Assembly (NCBI RefSeq): GCF_024700885.2
Contig: NZ_CP117016.1
Direction: 5' to 3' (one strand)
From: Escherichia coli
GTDB taxonomy: Bacteria; Pseudomonadota; Gammaproteobacteria; Enterobacterales; Enterobacteriaceae
DNA: 64,000 nt
This document shows positions 54,972 to 64,000 of the stretch, one piece after another. The position numbers were made by a program, and so were the translations under genes. Below the pieces are notes generated by a model. That model did no database searches. It was given only the letters and a program-made list of their open reading frames with translations, and was not told the DNA's origin. Each line of letters begins with the position of its first letter. Position 1 is the first letter of the stretch.

Positions 54972-55076
54972 ATGAGTGCAATAGAAAATTTCGATGCCCA
55001 TACGCCCATGATGCAGCAGTACCATTTTTCTATGGTTAACCTGTTGAAATTTAGCAATAAAGTGTTTGGTAAGTAG
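54972..55076 (+). pseudogene. mutS: mutS 5' fragment: first 17 codons of DNA mismatch repair protein MutS, then out-of-gene sequence and a stop
   Basis: ATGAGTGCAATAGAAAATTTCGATGCCCATACGCCCATGATGCAGCAGTA encodes MSAIENFDAHTPMMQQY (MutS N-terminus); after 55022 the sequence turns AT-rich and non-MutS (HFSMVNLLKFSNKVFGK-stop). Confidence 0.85.
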
Positions 55077-55365
55077 ACTCTGGTTTACTGATGGTATACA
55101 TAACATATAGTTATGTTAGCCAAGAACTCGAACTTAATGTGCCTAACTACAGAATGAAAAGTAACGTTGCGATACCGAAAAAATTTGGTGGCGTAAGGAA
55201 GGAATTGAAGTTCATTCATCTCCGTGAATATCTAAATCAATTTAATAACCAATTAAATAATTAGCTGGCTACAAATAACATTGATCTAATTCAATAATTT
55301 AGGATTATGTATTGGAGCTATTGAAAAAGTTGTGTTATAAAGGAAAAAAATCAAGGGAGATTAAA

Positions 55366-55635
55366 ATGTCTATCGATATCAATAAGTTAAAATCAAAATT
55401 AATTGAAGATTATAAATTCGCTGACGAGATTAGCGATGATGAAATCAATATAGTTTTAAGTGAAATACACAAAAAGGGTGCCTCAACACCAAAAGAAGTA
55501 GACGAAATTGTCTATACGGTATTAGAGGGTAAAAGGCATTATGCTTTCGAAAGTCTGGATACATCCAATACTACATCCCTTGCATTACAGTTAATTCAGG
55601 CGGCAAAGGTATATGCTCAAACACAAGGAAGATGA
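55366..55635 (+). CDS. hypothetical small acidic protein (89 aa), first gene of island cargo cluster
   Basis: SD agggaga 6 nt upstream of ATG 55366 (track ORF 55312..55635 is the same frame); no recognisable motif. Confidence 0.5.
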   Translation: MSIDINKLKSKLIEDYKFADEISDDEINIVLSEIHKKGASTPKEVDEIVYTVLEGKRHYAFESLDTSNTTSLALQLIQAAKVYAQTQGR

Positions 55636-56401
55636 AAGCATTCACATAGAGAGTAAAAAAAAACTTGATATGGAATTGCAGTTTTTAATAGATGAGATGC
55701 AAGCTGGGAAGGATAAAAACACTATTCTTCCACTGTTGAATAAACTGCAATTACAGTTTTCGATCTATGTTACTGATTTTGAAAATTTCATCGTTCGAGT
55801 TTCAGAAAATGGGTATTATCGTTCAAAAGGTGAAATAAAAGATGTTTTAATTAGCGTAGAAAATTTTTTAAATTCAAATGCAGTTGTTGCAGAAGCAATA
55901 AATACAGTTTCAAGCATATTCAATTTACCCCAATGTTATCAAGAAGGAAATTTCATAACAACTGCTCAAATAATATTAAGAACACATCAGAAAGAAAAAG
56001 CCGAGGAATTATCTCAAATTTATAAGGATAAAGGATTATCAACAAATGGCTTTGATAGTAAAGAAAAAATTTATTTGAACAGACACGGGTTTGATATGAC
56101 CAGATTTATTTCGTTTATATTAGGATTAATTTGTATACTTTATTTTTTATATGAATACAATATAGGCAATATAAACAATGGTATAAGTTGGTTTAATTAT
56201 AGATTGTTTGTTCCAACTGGATTAGGAGCAATAATATTTTCACTATTTCCGACAACCATGCAATTAAAATTTAGAGCAGGAGTGACAGCCACTGGAATTG
56301 TCGCATTTATTATATTTTTTTATACTGTCAATCCAGCAAAAGTTCCTGATTTTCAACTTCATAATATTGATAGCAATCAATCATCAGAAAAAAACAACTG
56401 A
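55613..56401 (+). CDS. hypothetical membrane-anchored protein (262 aa): about 170-aa soluble N-domain plus about 3 C-terminal TM helices
   Basis: ORF overlaps the upstream gene by 23 nt; hydrophobic segments FISFILGLICILYFLY, LGAIIFSLF, GIVAFIIFFYTV; alternative start ATG 55670. Confidence 0.6.
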   Translation: MLKHKEDESIHIESKKKLDMELQFLIDEMQAGKDKNTILPLLNKLQLQFSIYVTDFENFIVRVSENGYYRSKGEIKDVLISVENFLNSNAVVAEAINTVSSIFNLPQCYQEGNFITTAQIILRTHQKEKAEELSQIYKDKGLSTNGFDSKEKIYLNRHGFDMTRFISFILGLICILYFLYEYNIGNINNGISWFNYRLFVPTGLGAIIFSLFPTTMQLKFRAGVTATGIVAFIIFFYTVNPAKVPDFQLHNIDSNQSSEKNN

Positions 56402-56448
56402 TATCCAAGCGGATATCAGTTTAGATCTTAAAAGGAAAAAAATCCAAA

Positions 56449-56943
56449 GTGAAATTTATAGCATATGCGTTCTTGTCATTTACTATCGCACCAATAATTG
56501 GCATAATTATTGGAATTCCATTTGATAAATACTTACTCAAAAACTATCCAGTAGTTCTTTTCACAGTAATAATTATTTTCTCGTCCTTAGGAATCTACTC
56601 TCTTTACTTGTATAAAAAATCATACAAATATGTTAATGATGCTGTTTTAGCTATCTTTACTGGTTGGGTTGCATTGACATACTTACTCACGGGAGAAAAA
56701 ACAAGTGAGATAATCCCCTCGGAGAAACTAATTGAAACACACCCATTAATGTATTATCTAATAATATTAAAATTAACTATTGTTGCAAATGGGCTTTTGG
56801 CTAAGATATTTATTACATTAAACGAATTATATCATGCTCGTAAAGCTGAAAACAAAAGTGGGAAATATACTGATGTTTTAAAAATGACTATTTCCAGCAT
56901 TAAATCTTTTTTTAATTCTCAGAAGGACGGAGTCAAAAAGTAG
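56449..56943 (+). CDS. hypothetical integral membrane protein (164 aa, about 4 TM helices)
   Basis: GTG start; hydrophobic segments throughout; weak RBS. Confidence 0.5.
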   Translation: MKFIAYAFLSFTIAPIIGIIIGIPFDKYLLKNYPVVLFTVIIIFSSLGIYSLYLYKKSYKYVNDAVLAIFTGWVALTYLLTGEKTSEIIPSEKLIETHPLMYYLIILKLTIVANGLLAKIFITLNELYHARKAENKSGKYTDVLKMTISSIKSFFNSQKDGVKK

Positions 56944-57093
56944 AACAACCCCCATAGGAATTATTAATGCATTCATTGAAATAATAGCAGCAAAAACCAC
57001 TGCTAAATAATCATTCTTTGTGTCATAAAACAAAAACACAACAATATTTAAAAATAACACAAAGAGATAAAAAAGCATATCTTTAATATTCAT
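56878..57093 (-). CDS. hypothetical small hydrophobic protein (71 aa, 2 TM helices)
   Basis: Strong SD aaggagg 5 nt upstream of ATG (MNIKDMLFYLFVLFLNIVVFLF...); 3' end overlaps the convergent 56449..56943 ORF by 66 bp. Confidence 0.5.
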   Translation of the reverse strand: MNIKDMLFYLFVLFLNIVVFLFYDTKNDYLAVVFAAIISMNALIIPMGVVLLFDSVLLRIKKRFNAGNSHF

Positions 57094-57689
57094 AACAGCC
57101 TCCTTTTTTCTAATTTGATAATTTACAAATATCTTAATATAACGAAAAGTCAACTTACCCGATAAAAAATAGTTATTAGAACACCTTAAACTGATAATTA
57201 CATTAATAAATGCGAGTGATGAAATTTTTGAGTGAGATCATAAATTGTTGAGGCGTAAAGTTGTTGATATACCTGCTGTTCTGGTAAGTACTGCCATAAT
57301 AAAGGGCTGGTCTCCATCTGGTTTACTGCTTATATTTGTAGCTATGCTACTTAAGTGCTCTGTCGTTATATTGGGTATACATAATGCCCAAAAATCATTA
57401 TCGGATATTATTGAATCATCTAATAAGACGATGATTTTATTCACGAAAGATAATGCCAATGATGATGACGAAGCATTAACCAACCGTATTAATCAGATCA
57501 CAACCGAAGCTTTAACCAAACTCAGTAATAAAAAAGTTGATGCTGAAAAAACCTTGAATAAGCTCTAATGGTTGATTTTCATTGGTGTATCAGTCTGGTC
57601 TATGTTTGTTTTATATCAATTCAAAGATAACATAATCCCAGTTATTGAATTCGCCTATGAGCATATAAAGAGTTTCGTTACTTATTTAT

Positions 57690-57760
57690 TAAGCAAGGGC
57701 TAACTCATCGAAGCTCCGCTTCTTTGAGTTCCCTTGTTTTTCGCCCTTCGGTTGAAAAAG
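57690..57760. promoter_or_regulatory. candidate origin of transfer (oriT): nested inverted repeats upstream of mobC
   Basis: gcaagggctaactc ... gagttcccttg arms flanking the gaagc-tcc-gcttc hairpin, followed by cgcccttcgg; position matches oriT placement in mobC-mobA modules. Confidence 0.4.
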
Positions 57761-57784
57761 AAAGTCAAAGTCTAACCTAACTCA

Positions 57785-57812
57785 TTGACATGAATTGCAT
57801 TTCCACTATAAA
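57785..57812 (+). promoter_or_regulatory. sigma-70-like promoter for mobC-mobA
   Basis: -35 ttgaca (57785-57790), 16-nt spacer, -10 tataaa (57807-57812); strong SD aaaaaggag before mobC ATG. Confidence 0.5.
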
Positions 57813-57876: not shown

Positions 57877-58260
57877 ATGGGTAAAATAATAACATTGTCG
57901 TATACAAATAATTTTAAGCCTATTAGCGATAATAAATCTCAATCATTGCGAATACACTGTGTAAGTGTACGATTAAATAAAGAAGAGTTAGAGCTTCTCA
58001 ATGCAAGCCGTGGTGATAAACGCAAAGGTGAATGGCTTCGCATGGCATCACTTCAAAAGCTTCCTCCGACCATTCCTACAATCAATTTAGAAGTTTGGCA
58101 ATCATTGTCTGATATATCTCAAAAGCTAAACCGTCTAATAATCCACCTTGATACTAAAAGCAGTAATAGTGAACTGACGAAAACAGAGATCTTCGCTGTT
58201 AAAAAGCAGATTAAAGAGCTTCGCTCATGTCTTACAGGTTCTGATCCGTCCGTAAGGTAG
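57877..58260 (+). CDS. mobC: MobC-like relaxosome accessory protein
   Basis: 127 aa; segment VSVRLNKEELELLNASRGDKRKGEWLRMASL resembles the conserved MobC core (VRLxxEE...L...A); immediately upstream of the relaxase. Confidence 0.7.
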   Translation: MGKIITLSYTNNFKPISDNKSQSLRIHCVSVRLNKEELELLNASRGDKRKGEWLRMASLQKLPPTIPTINLEVWQSLSDISQKLNRLIIHLDTKSSNSELTKTEIFAVKKQIKELRSCLTGSDPSVR

Positions 58261-58268
58261 TTATTCGC

Positions 58269-59450
58269 ATGAAAGGAATGCAGAAGATCAAAAGGGGTAA
58301 GAGCTTCTCAGGTGTGGTTCTCTATGTGTTAAAGCCAGGCTCACACCATAGAACCGTTCCAGAAGTAATTGGTGGCAACATGACAGGTGATTGCTCACAA
58401 GAGTTAATCGACGAATTTAACCTTACGAAAGAGCTTCGCTCAGATGTGGCAAAACCTGTTTGGCACAATTCACTTCGATTACCCCAGGGAGAATCTCTTA
58501 CCAACGAACAATGGAAACGAATTGCTGACGATTACATGAAGCGAATGGGGTTCGGTGATACACACCTCCGTTGCTATGTTCTTCATGATGATCAGGCTGG
58601 TCAGCACATACACATTATTGCAAGTCGCATAGATCTCAATGGCGGGAAGCTCTACTTGGGTAGGAACGAAAACCTCATCAGCACCCGCATAATCAGTGAA
58701 CTCGAATTCGCTCATGGTCTGACAGTGACCAAGACAGCCTCTTCAATTGCACCAAAGCAACCGAAGCGGAAGAGAATCTCTCGCAACGAACAGATGCTAT
58801 CAGAACGAACTGGTGTTCCCTGCCCCAAGAAGTCCCTTCAACAGATCATAGATAAAAGTTTGGCAGATACACCTGACCTTTTAACTTTTATCAAGAGGCT
58901 GGAAGAAGCAGAAGTAGGCTGGACGGCGAATGTCGCAAGCACAGGTAAAATGAACGGGTTCTCTTTCGAATACACAGGAATAGCTTTCAAAGCTTCCCAG
59001 TTAGCCAAGAGCTATTCATGGGCAAATCTTCAAAAGCAGCTTAACTACAACCCGGATCACTTAGAAGCTCTGCGAAAGGATATACAGACCAAGGAAGTTC
59101 CTGCTCCTGTTCCTGTTCCTGTTCCTGTTCCTGTTCCTGTTCCTGTTCCTGTTCCTGCAGAACCGATAGCAAGAACGGCCGCCCAGATCGAAAGCATAAG
59201 TGAAAAAATTGCCGAACTGGAACTACGACTCAAAGAAGACAGAAGAAACGAAATCGTAGAAAAGATTCTTCAAAAGAATGCAGCCAAACAGCAAAAGCAT
59301 CTCAGGCTCACCGGCTGGATTCCCTTTTTACAACGGCTCATAGAGCTTCTCAGAAAATATGGAAGGAGCATCCTCCACAAGGTTCCTACAAACTTCTTAG
59401 AAGTCTATTCAACCCATCATCTGAAACCTACAAGAAAAATTCGTTTATAG
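58269..59450 (+). CDS. mobA: MobA/VirD2-type HUH relaxase (mobilisation nuclease)
   Basis: 393 aa; N-terminal Tyr region KSFSGVVLYVLK; three-His motif HDDQAGQHIHIIASRID; coiled-coil C-terminus. Confidence 0.85.
   Translation: MKGMQKIKRGKSFSGVVLYVLKPGSHHRTVPEVIGGNMTGDCSQELIDEFNLTKELRSDVAKPVWHNSLRLPQGESLTNEQWKRIADDYMKRMGFGDTHLRCYVLHDDQAGQHIHIIASRIDLNGGKLYLGRNENLISTRIISELEFAHGLTVTKTASSIAPKQPKRKRISRNEQMLSERTGVPCPKKSLQQIIDKSLADTPDLLTFIKRLEEAEVGWTANVASTGKMNGFSFEYTGIAFKASQLAKSYSWANLQKQLNYNPDHLEALRKDIQTKEVPAPVPVPVPVPVPVPVPVPAEPIARTAAQIESISEKIAELELRLKEDRRNEIVEKILQKNAAKQQKHLRLTGWIPFLQRLIELLRKYGRSILHKVPTNFLEVYSTHHLKPTRKIRL
59100..59159 (+). repeat. hexanucleotide tandem repeat: 8 perfect CCTGTT units (59106-59153) flanked by CCTGCT and CCTGCA
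   Basis: Encodes PAPVPVPVPVPVPVPVPVPA linker inside the relaxase. Confidence 0.95.
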
Positions 59451-60366: not shown

Positions 60367-60801
60367 CTATAACCTGACGGCTCTTACGCGAACTTCATGG
60401 GTTAACTCTTTCTCGATTACTTTCATTTCATATTGTGCTCTGACAGTAGCATAGATTTCTTCTGCCATTTCTTGATTGCTATCGATATAGTTAACGAGAG
60501 AGTTTAGCTCCCTGATAACAGCTTCCTTATTGTTTAATCGTTGTAGTAGATTGCTTGTTAGGCTTTTGTATACAGAGCTAAACATTGCCATGACATTGTC
60601 TATGTTACGATTTGATTTGGAATAAATTTTTTTAGGATAGAAATATTTTAAATGGTATCCCACAAAAATTAAGTAAAGCTGATATGAAAAACTTTTATCA
60701 TGTGGCTGATATCGTTTTGATATGTATTTATCTACAATGATAACAAGCTGTTCTTCCAGTGTCATCACTGAATTATAATTGGTTTTGTTCATAAGTTGCA
60801 T
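60367..60801 (-). CDS. hypothetical protein (144 aa), last gene of recombinase-strand cluster
   Basis: ORF with ATG; no recognisable motif. Confidence 0.5.
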   Translation of the reverse strand: MQLMNKTNYNSVMTLEEQLVIIVDKYISKRYQPHDKSFSYQLYLIFVGYHLKYFYPKKIYSKSNRNIDNVMAMFSSVYKSLTSNLLQRLNNKEAVIRELNSLVNYIDSNQEMAEEIYATVRAQYEMKVIEKELTHEVRVRAVRL

Positions 60802-60894
60802 CCTTGCAAAATTTGATTTTGTCTTCCTGACAATACATATATAATTACCACATATTTAAAAAACATCAATAGACAAAACCTATTGATGTCAAAA

Positions 60895-61278
60895 TTATTT
60901 TTTGTTTTTGGGAAAAATTTGATCTTCTCTAATACATTTACCATATGCAACCATTTGAAGATCTCTAACCATAAGTAGAAGCCTGTTATTTTCACTAACT
61001 AACCTCGAATTTTCTGTTTCTAATTTACTGATTTTATTCGAAGCATAGGCAAGACTTTGAGGACTTTTAATATGCTTAACAGTTTCACCTTTAGTTCTCT
61101 TTTTCTGCTGATATGCATAAGCTATTACTGTATGTCTTGAAAGAGCCTGTCTCGTTGGTTTTTTACCGAAATGATCCTCTACGGAATCACAAAGACTGAC
61201 CCAAGTTAAATCGCCTTCCCAGCCATTTATTTTATCGAGAACGAATTCAATATCTTCCTTGTTAAACTTTTTACTCAT
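60895..61278 (-). CDS. small coiled-coil protein downstream of the recombinases (TnpC-like position)
   Basis: Start at MSKKFNKEDIEF (track ORF starts 10 codons earlier); overlaps the upstream recombinase gene; C-terminal heptad-like region KISKLETENSRLVSENNRLLLMVRDLQ. Confidence 0.55.
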   Translation of the reverse strand: MSKKFNKEDIEFVLDKINGWEGDLTWVSLCDSVEDHFGKKPTRQALSRHTVIAYAYQQKKRTKGETVKHIKSPQSLAYASNKISKLETENSRLVSENNRLLLMVRDLQMVAYGKCIREDQIFPKNKK

Positions 61279-62917
61279 TATGTTCTCCTCTAAGATAATA
61301 ACTAACAATATGATTTATAATTTTACTAACTTCTTGGATTTCCTTTTCAACATAATTCGCTTTCTGTGAATTATATTGGCTTCTGTATAAATTATTCTTT
61401 TCTTCAAGCGTTTGTAAATGGTCTTTAATTTTGCAAATAATATCATCCTTACTCCCTCCACCTAAATCAGAAATCATTTCATCAGCAAATAATACTCTTC
61501 GTTCGTTTTGTCGCAACTCCTCCCAAGTTCGGTTATCATACACATTATTTTGTTCAACATTTTTCCTCCCTGACCAAAAAGCTATTTCTATATCAGAGAG
61601 CATAGCTCTTTGAGCAAGAGTGTTTAAAAGATGTCTTGGCTGATGACTACTAAAAATCTCTTTCATACCATTGGGTTGTAATGTTTTATGTCGTTGAAAA
61701 AAATTTAAGGTAGTTTCTTTTTCTGACCTTTTTTTAAAATCAGCAATAAACATCTTTTTATTTGCGGGTAAGACACAGAATAAATCAATTCCTTTCTTTA
61801 AATGTAATTGATCTTTATTTAGGATTAACAATCTATTACTAAGGTTTATAGATTTTGAAAATTCATCCCAAGATTTTGTTTTATCGCTATAATTAAAAAC
61901 TTCATTCCAAAATTCTTTTGCACTAAGAATCCCACTCTCTACCCTCATTAATATATTTTTAGTTTTAACATTGAAGCAGTCCATACAGTTTAGATTTAAA
62001 AGCTTATACAACTTTGTATGAAAATATCGTCCATTCTCATCAGTCTCTAAACTCTTATAAAACTCCAATTCTCCTTTTTCTCGTAGGGTAGCTATGCACC
62101 TTGCCGTTTGTGATAATACCCTTAATCTTTTAATGGCTAATTTTGCTATTGAATGCATATTCCTTGGAATCCACTTTATACTTTCACCATAGCCTTTTGC
62201 ACTATGATAACGAATGCCATAGGAGCCTTTCCCCTCTATGTCGTTCCCTTCAACTTCACAATCCACCTCAAGACTCAGGACTTCTGATATTCGTGTTGGA
62301 GCACAAAGAAGCAGTGCGATGATAGATGTTGTAAATATATCTCTTTGGCTTTTATCATTAGAACTAAAAACCCTACCAACAAGATCTATGACTTCCTCTT
62401 CTGGTAACTTATTTTTAATTTCTTTTTGCCCTATAAGATCTCTTACAGCTTTATTTCTAATTATTCTAAGCCTGGAGTTAAACTTACTTAATTTTGGATT
62501 TATTATGTTATTTATAGCTAACACTTCTAAAATATTCTTTAATGCCTTTTCAATAGCCCCCGCACGACTATTAGAATATTTCTTTTCTACTTGGAATAAA
62601 ATGTTGTTGATAACCTCAGAATTAATATTAACAATATGTGGTTCTACATTCAAAGTGAAGAATGAACTTTCCATAATTTTTATGACCGCCAAATAAAGTA
62701 ATGATTTACTGAGATTAGGGAAACACTCTCTATATATAATAACCTTTGATAATTGTTGAAAATGCGCTCCCATGTCTTTATCTTTTTTTATATGATTGTT
62801 ATTTTTAAATGAAACCCCTCTACCCCATGACAAATCATCCCAATTTATAATATTTTCTTTTTTTGCCTGTATCCTTACTTCATTAGCTAAAACATCATAA
62901 TTATTATAATGACTCAT
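61271..62917 (-). CDS. tyrosine recombinase, large (548 aa; Tn554 TnpB-like size and position)
   Basis: Catalytic region HQPRHLLNTLAQRAMLSDIEIAFWSGRKNVEQNNVYDNR (HxxR ... Y); box I candidate PTRISEVLSL; 14-nt overlap with upstream recombinase. Confidence 0.8.
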   Translation of the reverse strand: MSHYNNYDVLANEVRIQAKKENIINWDDLSWGRGVSFKNNNHIKKDKDMGAHFQQLSKVIIYRECFPNLSKSLLYLAVIKIMESSFFTLNVEPHIVNINSEVINNILFQVEKKYSNSRAGAIEKALKNILEVLAINNIINPKLSKFNSRLRIIRNKAVRDLIGQKEIKNKLPEEEVIDLVGRVFSSNDKSQRDIFTTSIIALLLCAPTRISEVLSLEVDCEVEGNDIEGKGSYGIRYHSAKGYGESIKWIPRNMHSIAKLAIKRLRVLSQTARCIATLREKGELEFYKSLETDENGRYFHTKLYKLLNLNCMDCFNVKTKNILMRVESGILSAKEFWNEVFNYSDKTKSWDEFSKSINLSNRLLILNKDQLHLKKGIDLFCVLPANKKMFIADFKKRSEKETTLNFFQRHKTLQPNGMKEIFSSHQPRHLLNTLAQRAMLSDIEIAFWSGRKNVEQNNVYDNRTWEELRQNERRVLFADEMISDLGGGSKDDIICKIKDHLQTLEEKNNLYRSQYNSQKANYVEKEIQEVSKIINHIVSYYLRGEHNE

Positions 62918-63881
62918 TATTCATGCCCTCCTTGTTGAGCAATTCGATTATTTTATTTATTTTACATTCTAACATTGTGAATAAGTCCGTTAGGATTTCA
63001 AAGTCTGCTTGCTTCGTATAATCTGCTATTAATACTCCAGTAAGCTTTTTTATGATTATCAAATCGTCAACCAATCTAAGGGTAATGTCGTCACTGTTTT
63101 TTAAAAATGAGGAAATATAAGGGCTTACTAACTCATTTATTGCCTGATCTATTCTGAATGAAAACTCTTCATTGTTTTTTGCATACGACAATACTGATTT
63201 CAAATTGCTATGATCTAAAGCTTTTGCTATCGTACCTAATCCATAACCTTTAAGTGCAAGCCTTGTGGCTAATGTAACCCTAAGTTGCCGAGAGTTAATC
63301 TTTTTATTTTTATCTTTACTTACCCTTTGGCAAATGGCCTGAACCCTACCGGTTATCCTCTTAGAACTCATATGCAAATTGAAGAAGTTATTTTCATATA
63401 ATTTATCAAGTTTGTAAGTCGAGTTAAAAAAACAAGGATCAATAAAGAGGGGTAAATTGTTTAATTCATCTTCACTTAATATATCGCCTACCTCACCCTG
63501 CACAAAAACCTTAACTACTGATTTAAGCTCTGATAGTGAATTGAACAAATTATCCCCTATACGCAATTCGGAAAAATCAGTTCTGAAACTATCTCCTTGT
63601 TTTAATCTGGGTATGTTTAAAAAATTACCATTTTCTTTGATATAAAGATCCTTCCTTTTTAATTGAGCGATCTGCATTGGTCTTCGCCCCGAATATATCA
63701 TCAGCATGACTAAAAGGTAGTCATTCATAGTCATATTTCCATCATTGTATTCCTTTGTCATGCCCCCAATTAGGTTCTTCAGTTCGTATTCAGATAATGG
63801 TCTTAAAGACTCTTTTCGCTCAATATATGCAGTTGTCTTGTTGGGTTTAGTTACTTTCCATTTTAAAATCAAATCCAGCAT
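62904..63881 (-). CDS. tyrosine recombinase, small (325 aa; Tn554 TnpA-like size and position)
   Basis: Box I YSGRRPMQIAQLKRKDL; box II/Tyr region LRVTLATRLALKGYGLGTIAKALDHSNLKSVLSYAKN. Confidence 0.8.
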   Translation of the reverse strand: MLDLILKWKVTKPNKTTAYIERKESLRPLSEYELKNLIGGMTKEYNDGNMTMNDYLLVMLMIYSGRRPMQIAQLKRKDLYIKENGNFLNIPRLKQGDSFRTDFSELRIGDNLFNSLSELKSVVKVFVQGEVGDILSEDELNNLPLFIDPCFFNSTYKLDKLYENNFFNLHMSSKRITGRVQAICQRVSKDKNKKINSRQLRVTLATRLALKGYGLGTIAKALDHSNLKSVLSYAKNNEEFSFRIDQAINELVSPYISSFLKNSDDITLRLVDDLIIIKKLTGVLIADYTKQADFEILTDLFTMLECKINKIIELLNKEGMNNESL

Positions 63882-64000
63882 TTCTTGATCTATGAATTCA
63901 TTATTTAACTCATAATGTTTTATTATAAAATACTTTAAACTTTCAACATGTGTATAGCTTATTTTATAATATGCATTGTAAAATCTATTTAGTAATCCAT

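Follow-up and report, generated by a model that had tools for sequence, protein, structure and literature searches.

A probable GInt/Tn6571-type recombinase operon within a mobilizable, Gabija-carrying island inserted in mutS of Escherichia coli

GInts, or Tn6571-family elements, are defined by a ginABCD operon composed of three recombinase-fold genes and one gene for a small helical protein (Bardaji et al. 2017, Sci Rep, PMC5385486; Idola et al. 2023, PMC10214605). They are described with flanking imperfect direct repeats of 10–17 nt and a short AT-rich 3' end, and in the characterised members all four genes are required for the end-to-end recombination of the element into a circle and for its site-specific integration. 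The end of the ribonucleotide reductase (RNR) alpha gene is a reported target of the Pseudomonas aeruginosa GInts, and ginC-ginD blocks have been reported in 7.5% of Escherichia replicons. Here we describe an operon of this kind from a 64,000-nucleotide stretch of DNA of Escherichia coli (contig NZ_CP117016.1; the whole stretch is hereafter called the window). Three open reading frames (ORFs) close to its end are probably the ginB, ginC and ginD genes of a four-gene GInt/Tn6571-type operon located inside an integrative mobilizable element (IME) of mutS, the insertion into mutS having probably been made by an integrase on the mutS side of the island and not by the gin genes. This explanation was built on gene content, homology, fold, conserved residues, junction anatomy and distribution, from which we infer the catalytic activities and the pairing of enzymes with their sites.

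Other described systems share parts of this arrangement. Tn554 encodes an ordinary and a large tyrosine recombinase in tandem, then a small accessory protein that is needed for transposition, and its insertion is site- and orientation-specific. SEs (strand-biased circularizing integrative elements) of Gammaproteobacteria carry four core genes, three of recombinase fold and one for a small protein, in the order intA-tfp-intB-srap, and SE and GInt proteins fall in separate clusters. RIT elements carry three recombinases of ~315–410 aa without a small fourth gene, bounded by 34-bp terminal inverted repeats. The insertion site has its own literature. Chu et al. (2017, mBio, PMC5296598) found hundreds of mutS elements via their integrase, which lies within 300 bp of mutS, the element having entered the HTPMMQQ motif, orphaned the native start and brought a start of its own, and detected excision by PCR in E. 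coli 536; their class is defined by the adjacent integrase alone, and the gin trio is undescribed there. Furthermore, the mutS/ygbA interval is hotspot #8 of Hochhauser et al. (2023, PLoS Genet, PMC10121019, Table S2), occupied in 27 of 1,322 genomes by islands labelled 'IME__GInt' or 'IME', the GInt label having been assigned there by BLAST. The 'IME__GInt' islands resemble the present one in their hotspot, in the combination of a relaxase-bearing island with a GInt-type trio, and as carriers of anti-phage genes (here Gabija), whereas the catalogue gives a class label only and does not separate the roles of the recombinases. Thus, both the type of island and its place in mutS have been catalogued before, if not dissected.

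The window is E. coli chromosome with hyc/hyp genes, fhlA, a TOBE-domain gene, ygbA and then mutS, up to about 54.7–55.0 kb, where the G+C content drops from ~55% to ~31% and AT-rich foreign DNA follows to the window end. The complete genome of E. coli MLI114 (NZ_CP117013; locus L001), 100% identical over the region, served as reference, with window positions equal to L001 positions + 42899. The initial annotation of the window, made from its letters alone, listed three minus-strand ORFs, the first two overlapping by 14 nt, and these were recovered unchanged (62904–63881, 61271–62917 and 60895–61308, with the overlap at 62904–62917). Its first gene, given as 325 aa, is a genuine ORF, but its length arose artificially at the edge of the window: the frame remains open as far as base 63998, and in L001 the gene, hereafter B, is 456 aa long with its end at window-equivalent 64274. 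A search for further operon genes beyond position 64000, proposed in the same annotation, found the gene of a 430-aa recombinase (gene A, window-equivalent 64216–65508 in L001) directly upstream of B and in the same orientation, so that the operon has four genes and not three. Its members, A (430 aa), B (456 aa), C (548 aa) and D (127 aa), are co-directional and overlap at their ends. The start of gene D is most likely the ATG at 61278, which follows a GAGGAG Shine-Dalgarno sequence, is also the PGAP call and gives a protein of 127 aa; the overlap with C that had been described is real, and amounts to 8 nt from this start, against 38 nt from the TTG chosen at first. In the RefSeq annotation, two of the four gin genes are 'hypothetical', and carriers of the operon include E. 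coli MLI114 and CFSAN061761.

A and B are ordinary tyrosine recombinases according to Pfam, NCBIfam and PHROGs, B matching Pfam Phage_integrase at 5.6e-13 and NCBIfam NF041502 at 2.2e-65, the latter under its cutoff. The catalytic positions R217, K256, H334, R337, W370 and Y380 of A, and R198, K225, R332, H355 and Y364 of B, are invariant in alignments of 8 orthologs. The R...HxxR...Y signature first ascribed to both recombinases of the window was borne out for C, which reads R209...H425-x-x-R428...Y460, and not for B, where an arginine takes the place of the first histidine (R198...R329-x-x-R332...H355...Y364). Six residues of C (R209, K241, H425, R428, R451 and Y460) are invariant among 32 homologs, and the same six are retained in 134–140 of 140 representatives with at most ~50% mutual identity, drawn from a family of 2,055 representative clusters. 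Sequence profiles returned nothing significant for C as a recombinase (Pfam on the protein and its 32 homologs, NCBIfam, PHROGs), and neither did the PDB, searched by sequence and by profile, or hhalign against the neighbouring recombinases; profile-profile alignment with A and B put boxes I and II in register, weakly (E 0.077 and 0.0022). The recombinase fold of C was settled by structure, with K241 on a predicted beta-hairpin and H425/R428 at a helix start, like in known recombinases. A, B and C all appear to be tyrosine recombinases with conserved catalytic sets, and would presumably be catalytically active. We also considered that one of the trio proteins could be a relaxase of the MOB_M type, which is distantly related to tyrosine recombinases; this is unlikely, since a conventional relaxase is already in the island and cargo-less elements that have no mob function contain the same four genes.

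The small protein D was predicted to have an N-terminal domain of four helices and, after it, a helix of 41 residues at positions 73–113 (AF2 pLDDT 82; helix >90), in agreement with the heptad-like C-terminus noticed in the initial annotation. On this model, the N-terminal helical domain is probably a DNA-binding head and the C-terminal tail a coiled coil. The structural neighbours of D in AFDB are uncharacterised proteins of ~130 aa, some of which are labelled 'Transposase' or 'KfrA N-terminal DNA-binding domain'; TnpC of Tn554 is not among the top 50. D can be aligned end to end with the small proteins of two related loci, L008 and L018, with a BLASTP value of 1e-11 for the D-position protein of L018.

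These four genes reproduce the GInt layout, with three tyrosine-recombinase-fold proteins and a ~130-aa helical protein encoded in one co-directional operon, and other DNA starts directly after the ginD stop codon, as cargo does in GInts. Homology is also gene by gene. Locus L018, from Pseudomonas sp. CR3202, is a cargo-less four-gene element placed exactly between nrdA and nrdB, and in Sphingobium the same four genes come next after the RNR large-subunit gene. BLASTP searches with A, B, C and D gave same-position matches only, at 5e-17, 1e-8, 1e-20 and 1e-11 in the Pseudomonas element and at 2.5e-15, 1.6e-12, 7e-32 and 7e-4 in the Sphingobium element. The other four-gene and three-gene systems differ. 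SEs have a second gene (tfp) devoid of catalytic residues, with the large catalytic IntB encoded third, whereas all three proteins have catalytic sets here, and B, which keeps R, K, R, H and Y, is therefore not Tfp-like. Unlike RIT recombinases, those of the operon measure 430, 456 and 548 aa and come with a conserved fourth gene, and no terminal inverted repeats were seen. The trio itself showed no clear relatedness to phage integrases accompanied by an excisionase and attP, which the initial annotation had named as the finding that would overturn its view.

The native ATG of mutS (MSAIENFDAHTPMMQQY) stands at 54973 and the gene is broken after codon 17 at 55021, within its HTPMMQQY motif, as expected from the mutS interruption reported at the outset. 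The insert is 17.8 kb long in L001, and a 23-nt core (CAYACNCCNATGATGCARCARTA) is found only at its two outer junctions; this core, which a proposed inspection of both junctions was meant to reveal, is assigned to the integrase. Two elements in tandem at mutS were also considered and rejected, as the insert has no internal copy of the mutS core. The gene of a 487-aa integrase stops 147 bp short of the new mutS start, and full-length mutS lies beyond it with a new N-terminus (MKESASKDLSDHTPMMQQYLKL...) encoded from an island-supplied start (MKESASKDLSDHTPMMQQY, L001 29904–29960), after a segment of ~150 bp that is conserved in all islands. With this start, and with the native promoter and first 17 codons orphaned, mutS is expressed from island sequence. 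Repeats of GGTATAC/TGTATACC occur once at the left end and 3–4 times beside the integrase gene (L001 29761–29818), and they are present in L004 too, an island without the trio. In L002, which has a variant integrase, the left and right repeats change together from GTATAC to GCTAC. These repeats are probably arm-type binding sites of the mutS-adjacent integrase. We had considered them as gin ends, like the GTATAC clusters of the minimal Pseudomonas element, and assigned them to the integrase instead of the trio since they occur in a trio-less island and co-vary with the integrase. The whole island is of the class of Chu et al., with an integrase less than 300 bp from mutS, insertion in HTPMMQQ(Y), an orphaned 5' end and a new start; E. 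coli 536 is not among the matches listed. Insertion and excision at mutS are most likely carried out by the 487-aa integrase acting on the outer junctions, judging from this anatomy, the comparison between islands and the work of Chu et al.

Comparison of related islands separates the two recombination systems. L004 has an integrase 86% identical to that of L001, mob genes, the same junction structure and the same GTATAC-type repeats, and no trio; tblastn found no remnant of A to D in it, its DNA being too diverged from L001 for mapping an empty site. L003, at the same mutS site, has an integrase 92% identical and a trio just 33–35% identical. In addition, related trios are found on the same backbone in islands that have other integrases and lie at ssrA or elsewhere. 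The order of the islands is constant across E. coli, Enterobacter, Yersinia, Pantoea and Citrobacter: at one end a site-specific integrase, then a 191-aa ORF or DUF6387 with AlpA, ginA-B-C-D, a ~140-aa ORF with small ORFs, the relaxase with a MobC-like gene, and variable cargo. This cargo is mostly anti-phage, including Gabija, DRT3, Hachiman-like HamA with a helicase, retron Ec48, DUF4297-HerA, Pycsar-like genes and ThiF/JAB. The block of gin genes is swapped as a module, the mob block being ~80% identical to ours and the trio ~30% identical in the same islands. The terminator-like hairpin at the operon end is also the edge of this exchangeable module: DNA similarity to islands of another gin lineage ends at window ~60859; read in the direction of the operon, it returns ~36 bp past the ginD stop, just beyond the terminator. 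All four ORFs are intact in every island examined, down to 30–35% identity, and the 548-type trio lineage was found solely in mutS islands, in four genera. Four matches of a DNA search (H17–H20) were tried as trio-less relatives with an empty site and set aside, as they carry a different trio lineage.

Several points weigh against this assignment and the division of roles that goes with it. Described GInts carry the gin operon at their 5' end beside attL, whereas it is here internal to a larger island, and the flanking imperfect direct repeats were not found, word searches of the ginA-upstream DNA against the rest of the insert giving chance-level matches only in this AT-rich DNA. The island carries a relaxase of its own, whereas published descriptions call GInts non-mobilizable. 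C keeps a complete R-K-H-R-R-Y set, unlike the GinC of published GInts, described as without catalytic residues (PMC5385486, PMC10214605); either these accounts overlooked the residues or the C family is a distinct subfamily. Moreover, the operon is filed as GInt-type by sequence comparison with elements that have the published hallmark arrangement and target, and not with the proteins of the type GInts (P. stutzeri DSM 4166, P. syringae 1448A). Among 5,426 E. coli genomes, the trio is always present or always absent in a given lineage, and the gin module was not found on plasmids, which gives no direct sign of independent trio movement. Lastly, for both recombinase systems, it is from sequence that we infer which enzyme acts on which site.

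The features of the window are collected in Table 1. From left to right, the L001 island comprises the orphan mutS 5' end, four small ORFs, a hairpin, a MobC-like ORF, the relaxase, three small ORFs and ginD-C-B-A, followed by tRNA-Asp, tRNA-Val, a truncated tRNA, a 191-aa ORF, Gabija, a 214-aa ORF, the 487-aa integrase and mutS. The ginD end is 5.9 kb from the left mutS junction and the ginA start 7.3 kb from the right one.

Table 1. Features of the gin operon and the surrounding island in the window (position 1 is the first letter of the stretch)
Feature	Coordinates	Strand	Basis or remark
ginB-like tyrosine recombinase, 3' part (365/456 codons)	62904..64000	-	open frame, L001, Pfam, homology
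ginC-like large tyrosine-recombinase-fold protein, 548 aa	61271..62917	-	
ginD-like small protein, 127 aa	60895..61278	-	Shine-Dalgarno + ATG, alignment, BLASTP, AF2
Intrinsic-terminator-like hairpin, 13-pair stem + T-run, operon end	60862..60890	-	terminator scan + sequence
Conserved ~141-aa ORF after ginD	60367..60801	-	tblastn; no family hit
Relaxase (MOBP/Q-like) of island backbone	58269..59450	+	NCBIfam TraI_MobP_relax 1.8e-18, MobB 9e-20; RefSeq
127-aa ORF directly upstream of relaxase	57877..58260	+	conserved with relaxase in all islands; no family hit
Long imperfect hairpin GCAAGGGCTAACTCATCGAAGC...GCTTCTTTGAGTTCCCTTG upstream of mob genes	57691..57786	.	candidate oriT
Variable cargo region 1, four small ORFs	55022..57690	+	siblings carry defence systems here
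GGTATAC site ~70 bp inside left end	55090..55099	.	probable integrase arm-type site
Orphaned native mutS 5' end, closing in crossover core CATACGCCCATGATGCAGCAGTA; left island junction	54973..55021	+	

The ORF that follows ginD, as it does in most of the trio-bearing islands examined, has tblastn matches of 75–81% identity in L002 and L005 and of 42% in the trio-less L004, with no match in L003, and an ORF of ~140 aa occupies the same position in L003, L006, L007, L015, L020 and L021. Homologs of the relaxase were found by tblastn in all related islands. The relaxase contains a perfect (Pro-Val)8 repeat (window ~59127–59190), whose coding DNA, a GT/CA-rich dinucleotide-like tract, could change in length by slippage. 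The ORF directly upstream of it may be MobC-like, judging from its position alone. The hairpin ahead of these genes is the sole non-coding DNA common to the otherwise diverged islands, its palindrome being kept while its letters change, with two copies in L005, and we consider it a candidate oriT. The ORFs of cargo region 1 encode 107, 262, 164 and 107 aa (window 55312–57568), two of them with membrane-like C-termini, and had no PADLOC match and weak PHROG matches only; DUF4297-HerA, retron Ec48, Pycsar-like genes and ThiF/JAB occupy this place in sibling islands, and these ORFs are possibly uncharacterised defence genes. The DNA between the trio and the mutS-side integrase encodes a complete Gabija system (L001 23814–27643; GajB 615 aa and GajA 660 aa, PADLOC 1e-198 and 1e-240), in a slot that holds DRT3, Hachiman-like genes (HamA and a helicase), ToxN/AbiQ or H-NS in sibling islands. 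No type IV secretion system genes were found among the 20 annotated island coding sequences, and the island combines an integrase and a relaxase with no mating-pair apparatus, as IMEs do, its oriT remaining a candidate.

On the explanation that we prefer, the 487-aa integrase would integrate and excise the whole ~17.8-kb island at the mutS core, and the relaxase, together with the candidate oriT upstream, may allow mobilisation by a helper conjugative element. GinA, GinB and GinC, with GinD as a DNA-binding, architectural partner, would form a multi-recombinase machine acting on sites of its own; by analogy with GInts, both circle formation through attL x attR recombination and integration may require all four genes. 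Such a machine could provide a second recombination route or mobilise a sub-element. We tentatively suggest that it is retained as a backbone function of these islands.

Focusing on the DNA ahead of ginA, we identified a perfect 26-bp palindrome (ATATATTCACCTTAAGGTGAATATAT) located 120–145 bp upstream of the gene (L001 22728–22753, window-equivalent 65627–65652). Its core is exactly kept in every trio-bearing mutS island of the four genera, including L003, where the flanks are unalignable, and it is absent from the trio-less L004. In other gin lineages, a perfect palindrome of another sequence lies equally far from ginA (L020, L021 and L008, and L018 with one mismatch), the frequency of such palindromes in these loci being 0.09 per kb. 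It could be a gin operator or a ginA-proximal recombination site. A tRNA cassette follows it (L001 22755–23024), formed by a tRNA 3'-end-like fragment, tRNA-Asp(GTC), tRNA-Val(TAC) and a third tRNA that is truncated (Rfam 34 bits). In each island, a fragment resembling a tRNA 3' end and a variable tRNA cassette directly adjoin the palindrome, with shorter versions in siblings. One breakpoint of the cassettes is fixed at the palindrome and the other falls in a T-arm; no partner copy of the tRNA-like fragments was found elsewhere in the insert. The palindrome also borders the variable region that holds Gabija, DRT3 or Hachiman-like genes, and is the fixed endpoint of the tRNA-fragment cassette variation. 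The best candidate for a gin terminal repeat (TAACTCATTGA, L001 14879 and 23029) overlaps promoter-like -35 boxes. In the minimal element L018, 6 of the 7 GTATAC hexamers of 18 kb are within ~200 bp at each end (5184–5301 and 10648–10759), and these terminal clusters are likely to be terminal recombinase-binding sites.

A sub-case of the preferred explanation is a nested or tandem, independently mobile GInt, whose ginA-side end would lie at the palindrome/tRNA-fragment junction and whose cargo would extend leftwards from ginD to the small ORFs, the mob genes and perhaps the left variable region. Minimal cargo-less four-gene elements do exist (L018), the module edge falls exactly at the ginD terminator, as GInts are described, and the ginA side offers a palindrome at a fixed distance that is conserved across lineages and absent in L004, one endpoint of the variable tRNA cassette fixed at it, and a fall in L001/L005 identity from 91% to 77% across this very point. 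Against it, searches at the candidate distal ends found neither a partner site nor a direct repeat, the trio-less island also has the mob genes and the 141-aa ORF, which are thus not exclusive gin cargo, no within-lineage polymorphism for trio presence or absence was seen in the same 5,426 E. coli genomes, and a search of plasmids did not recover the module. We regard this nested arrangement as possible, though less likely than not. We give still less weight to the idea that the gin trio is not a hitchhiking transposon but a dedicated second system, which would capture or exchange cargo at the ginA palindrome as an integron-like platform for anti-phage genes, with three competent recombinases including GinC; this seems to us improbable.

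The initial annotation had proposed that the recombinase operon itself made the precise, oriented insertion into mutS. Some published GInts enter the 5' end of their target gene and restore its expression from an outward promoter, which resembles the replacement mutS start, and the restriction of the 548-type trio lineage to mutS islands of four genera would fit as well. However, the junctions are 5.9 and 7.3 kb away from the operon and a different integrase adjoins mutS; trio-less islands share this integrase, the junction architecture and the mutS position, and related trios sit elsewhere, which leaves the link to mutS unsupported. The end repeats follow the integrase variant and not the trio, Chu et al. 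(PMC5296598) found their mutS elements via that integrase and detected excision in E. coli 536, and L003 combines a 92%-identical integrase with a trio of only 33–35% identity at the same site. An insertion made by the operon is very improbable on this evidence, and the mutS-side integrase remains our explanation.

We also considered the gin module as an inactive relic of a past insertion, carried as a passive island passenger. The lack of evidence for independent movement and of recognisable ends would agree with it, but the four ORFs are intact in every island examined, down to 30–35% identity, with invariant catalytic residues, the genes still overlap at their start and stop codons and keep the terminator, and the upstream palindrome is exactly conserved; such conservation of ORFs, catalytic residues and gene overlaps to ~30% identity makes a relic highly unlikely. 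Finally, the Tn554 tnpA-tnpB-tnpC membership first suggested, for which the in-window order of small recombinase, large recombinase and small accessory protein and the low GinD-TnpC identity and structural similarity of the two families reported in the literature could be cited, is hardly credible given a third recombinase gene ahead of the window pair, with no counterpart among the three Tn554 genes, the Firmicute hosts of Tn554-related elements (Staphylococcus and Enterococcus), the limited or undetectable sequence similarity (per the literature only), the position-by-position matches of all four proteins to proteobacterial four-gene elements and the absence of TnpC from the top 50 structural neighbours of D. 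The layout is that of ginABCD; the analogy was a near miss, since the GInt literature notes a GinD-TnpC relationship, and the initial annotation was right in kind in seeing tandem tyrosine recombinases and a small accessory protein of a site-specific mobile-element recombination system.

The element family to which the gene set probably belongs has been described before, as have the island type and the mutS hotspot. Our results place GInt-type trios in the conserved backbone of a widespread family of mobilizable defence islands of enterobacteria, in which they coexist with an ordinary integrase. In addition, the complete and near-universal catalytic set of the third protein, contrary to the descriptions of GinC, bears on the mechanism of this multi-recombinase machine, for which the lineage-specific perfect palindrome at a fixed distance from ginA offers a concrete candidate site. 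Since island DNA takes the place of the mutS promoter and of the first 17 codons of the gene, excision of the island could alter the expression of mismatch repair, a point discussed by Chu et al. (PMC5296598).

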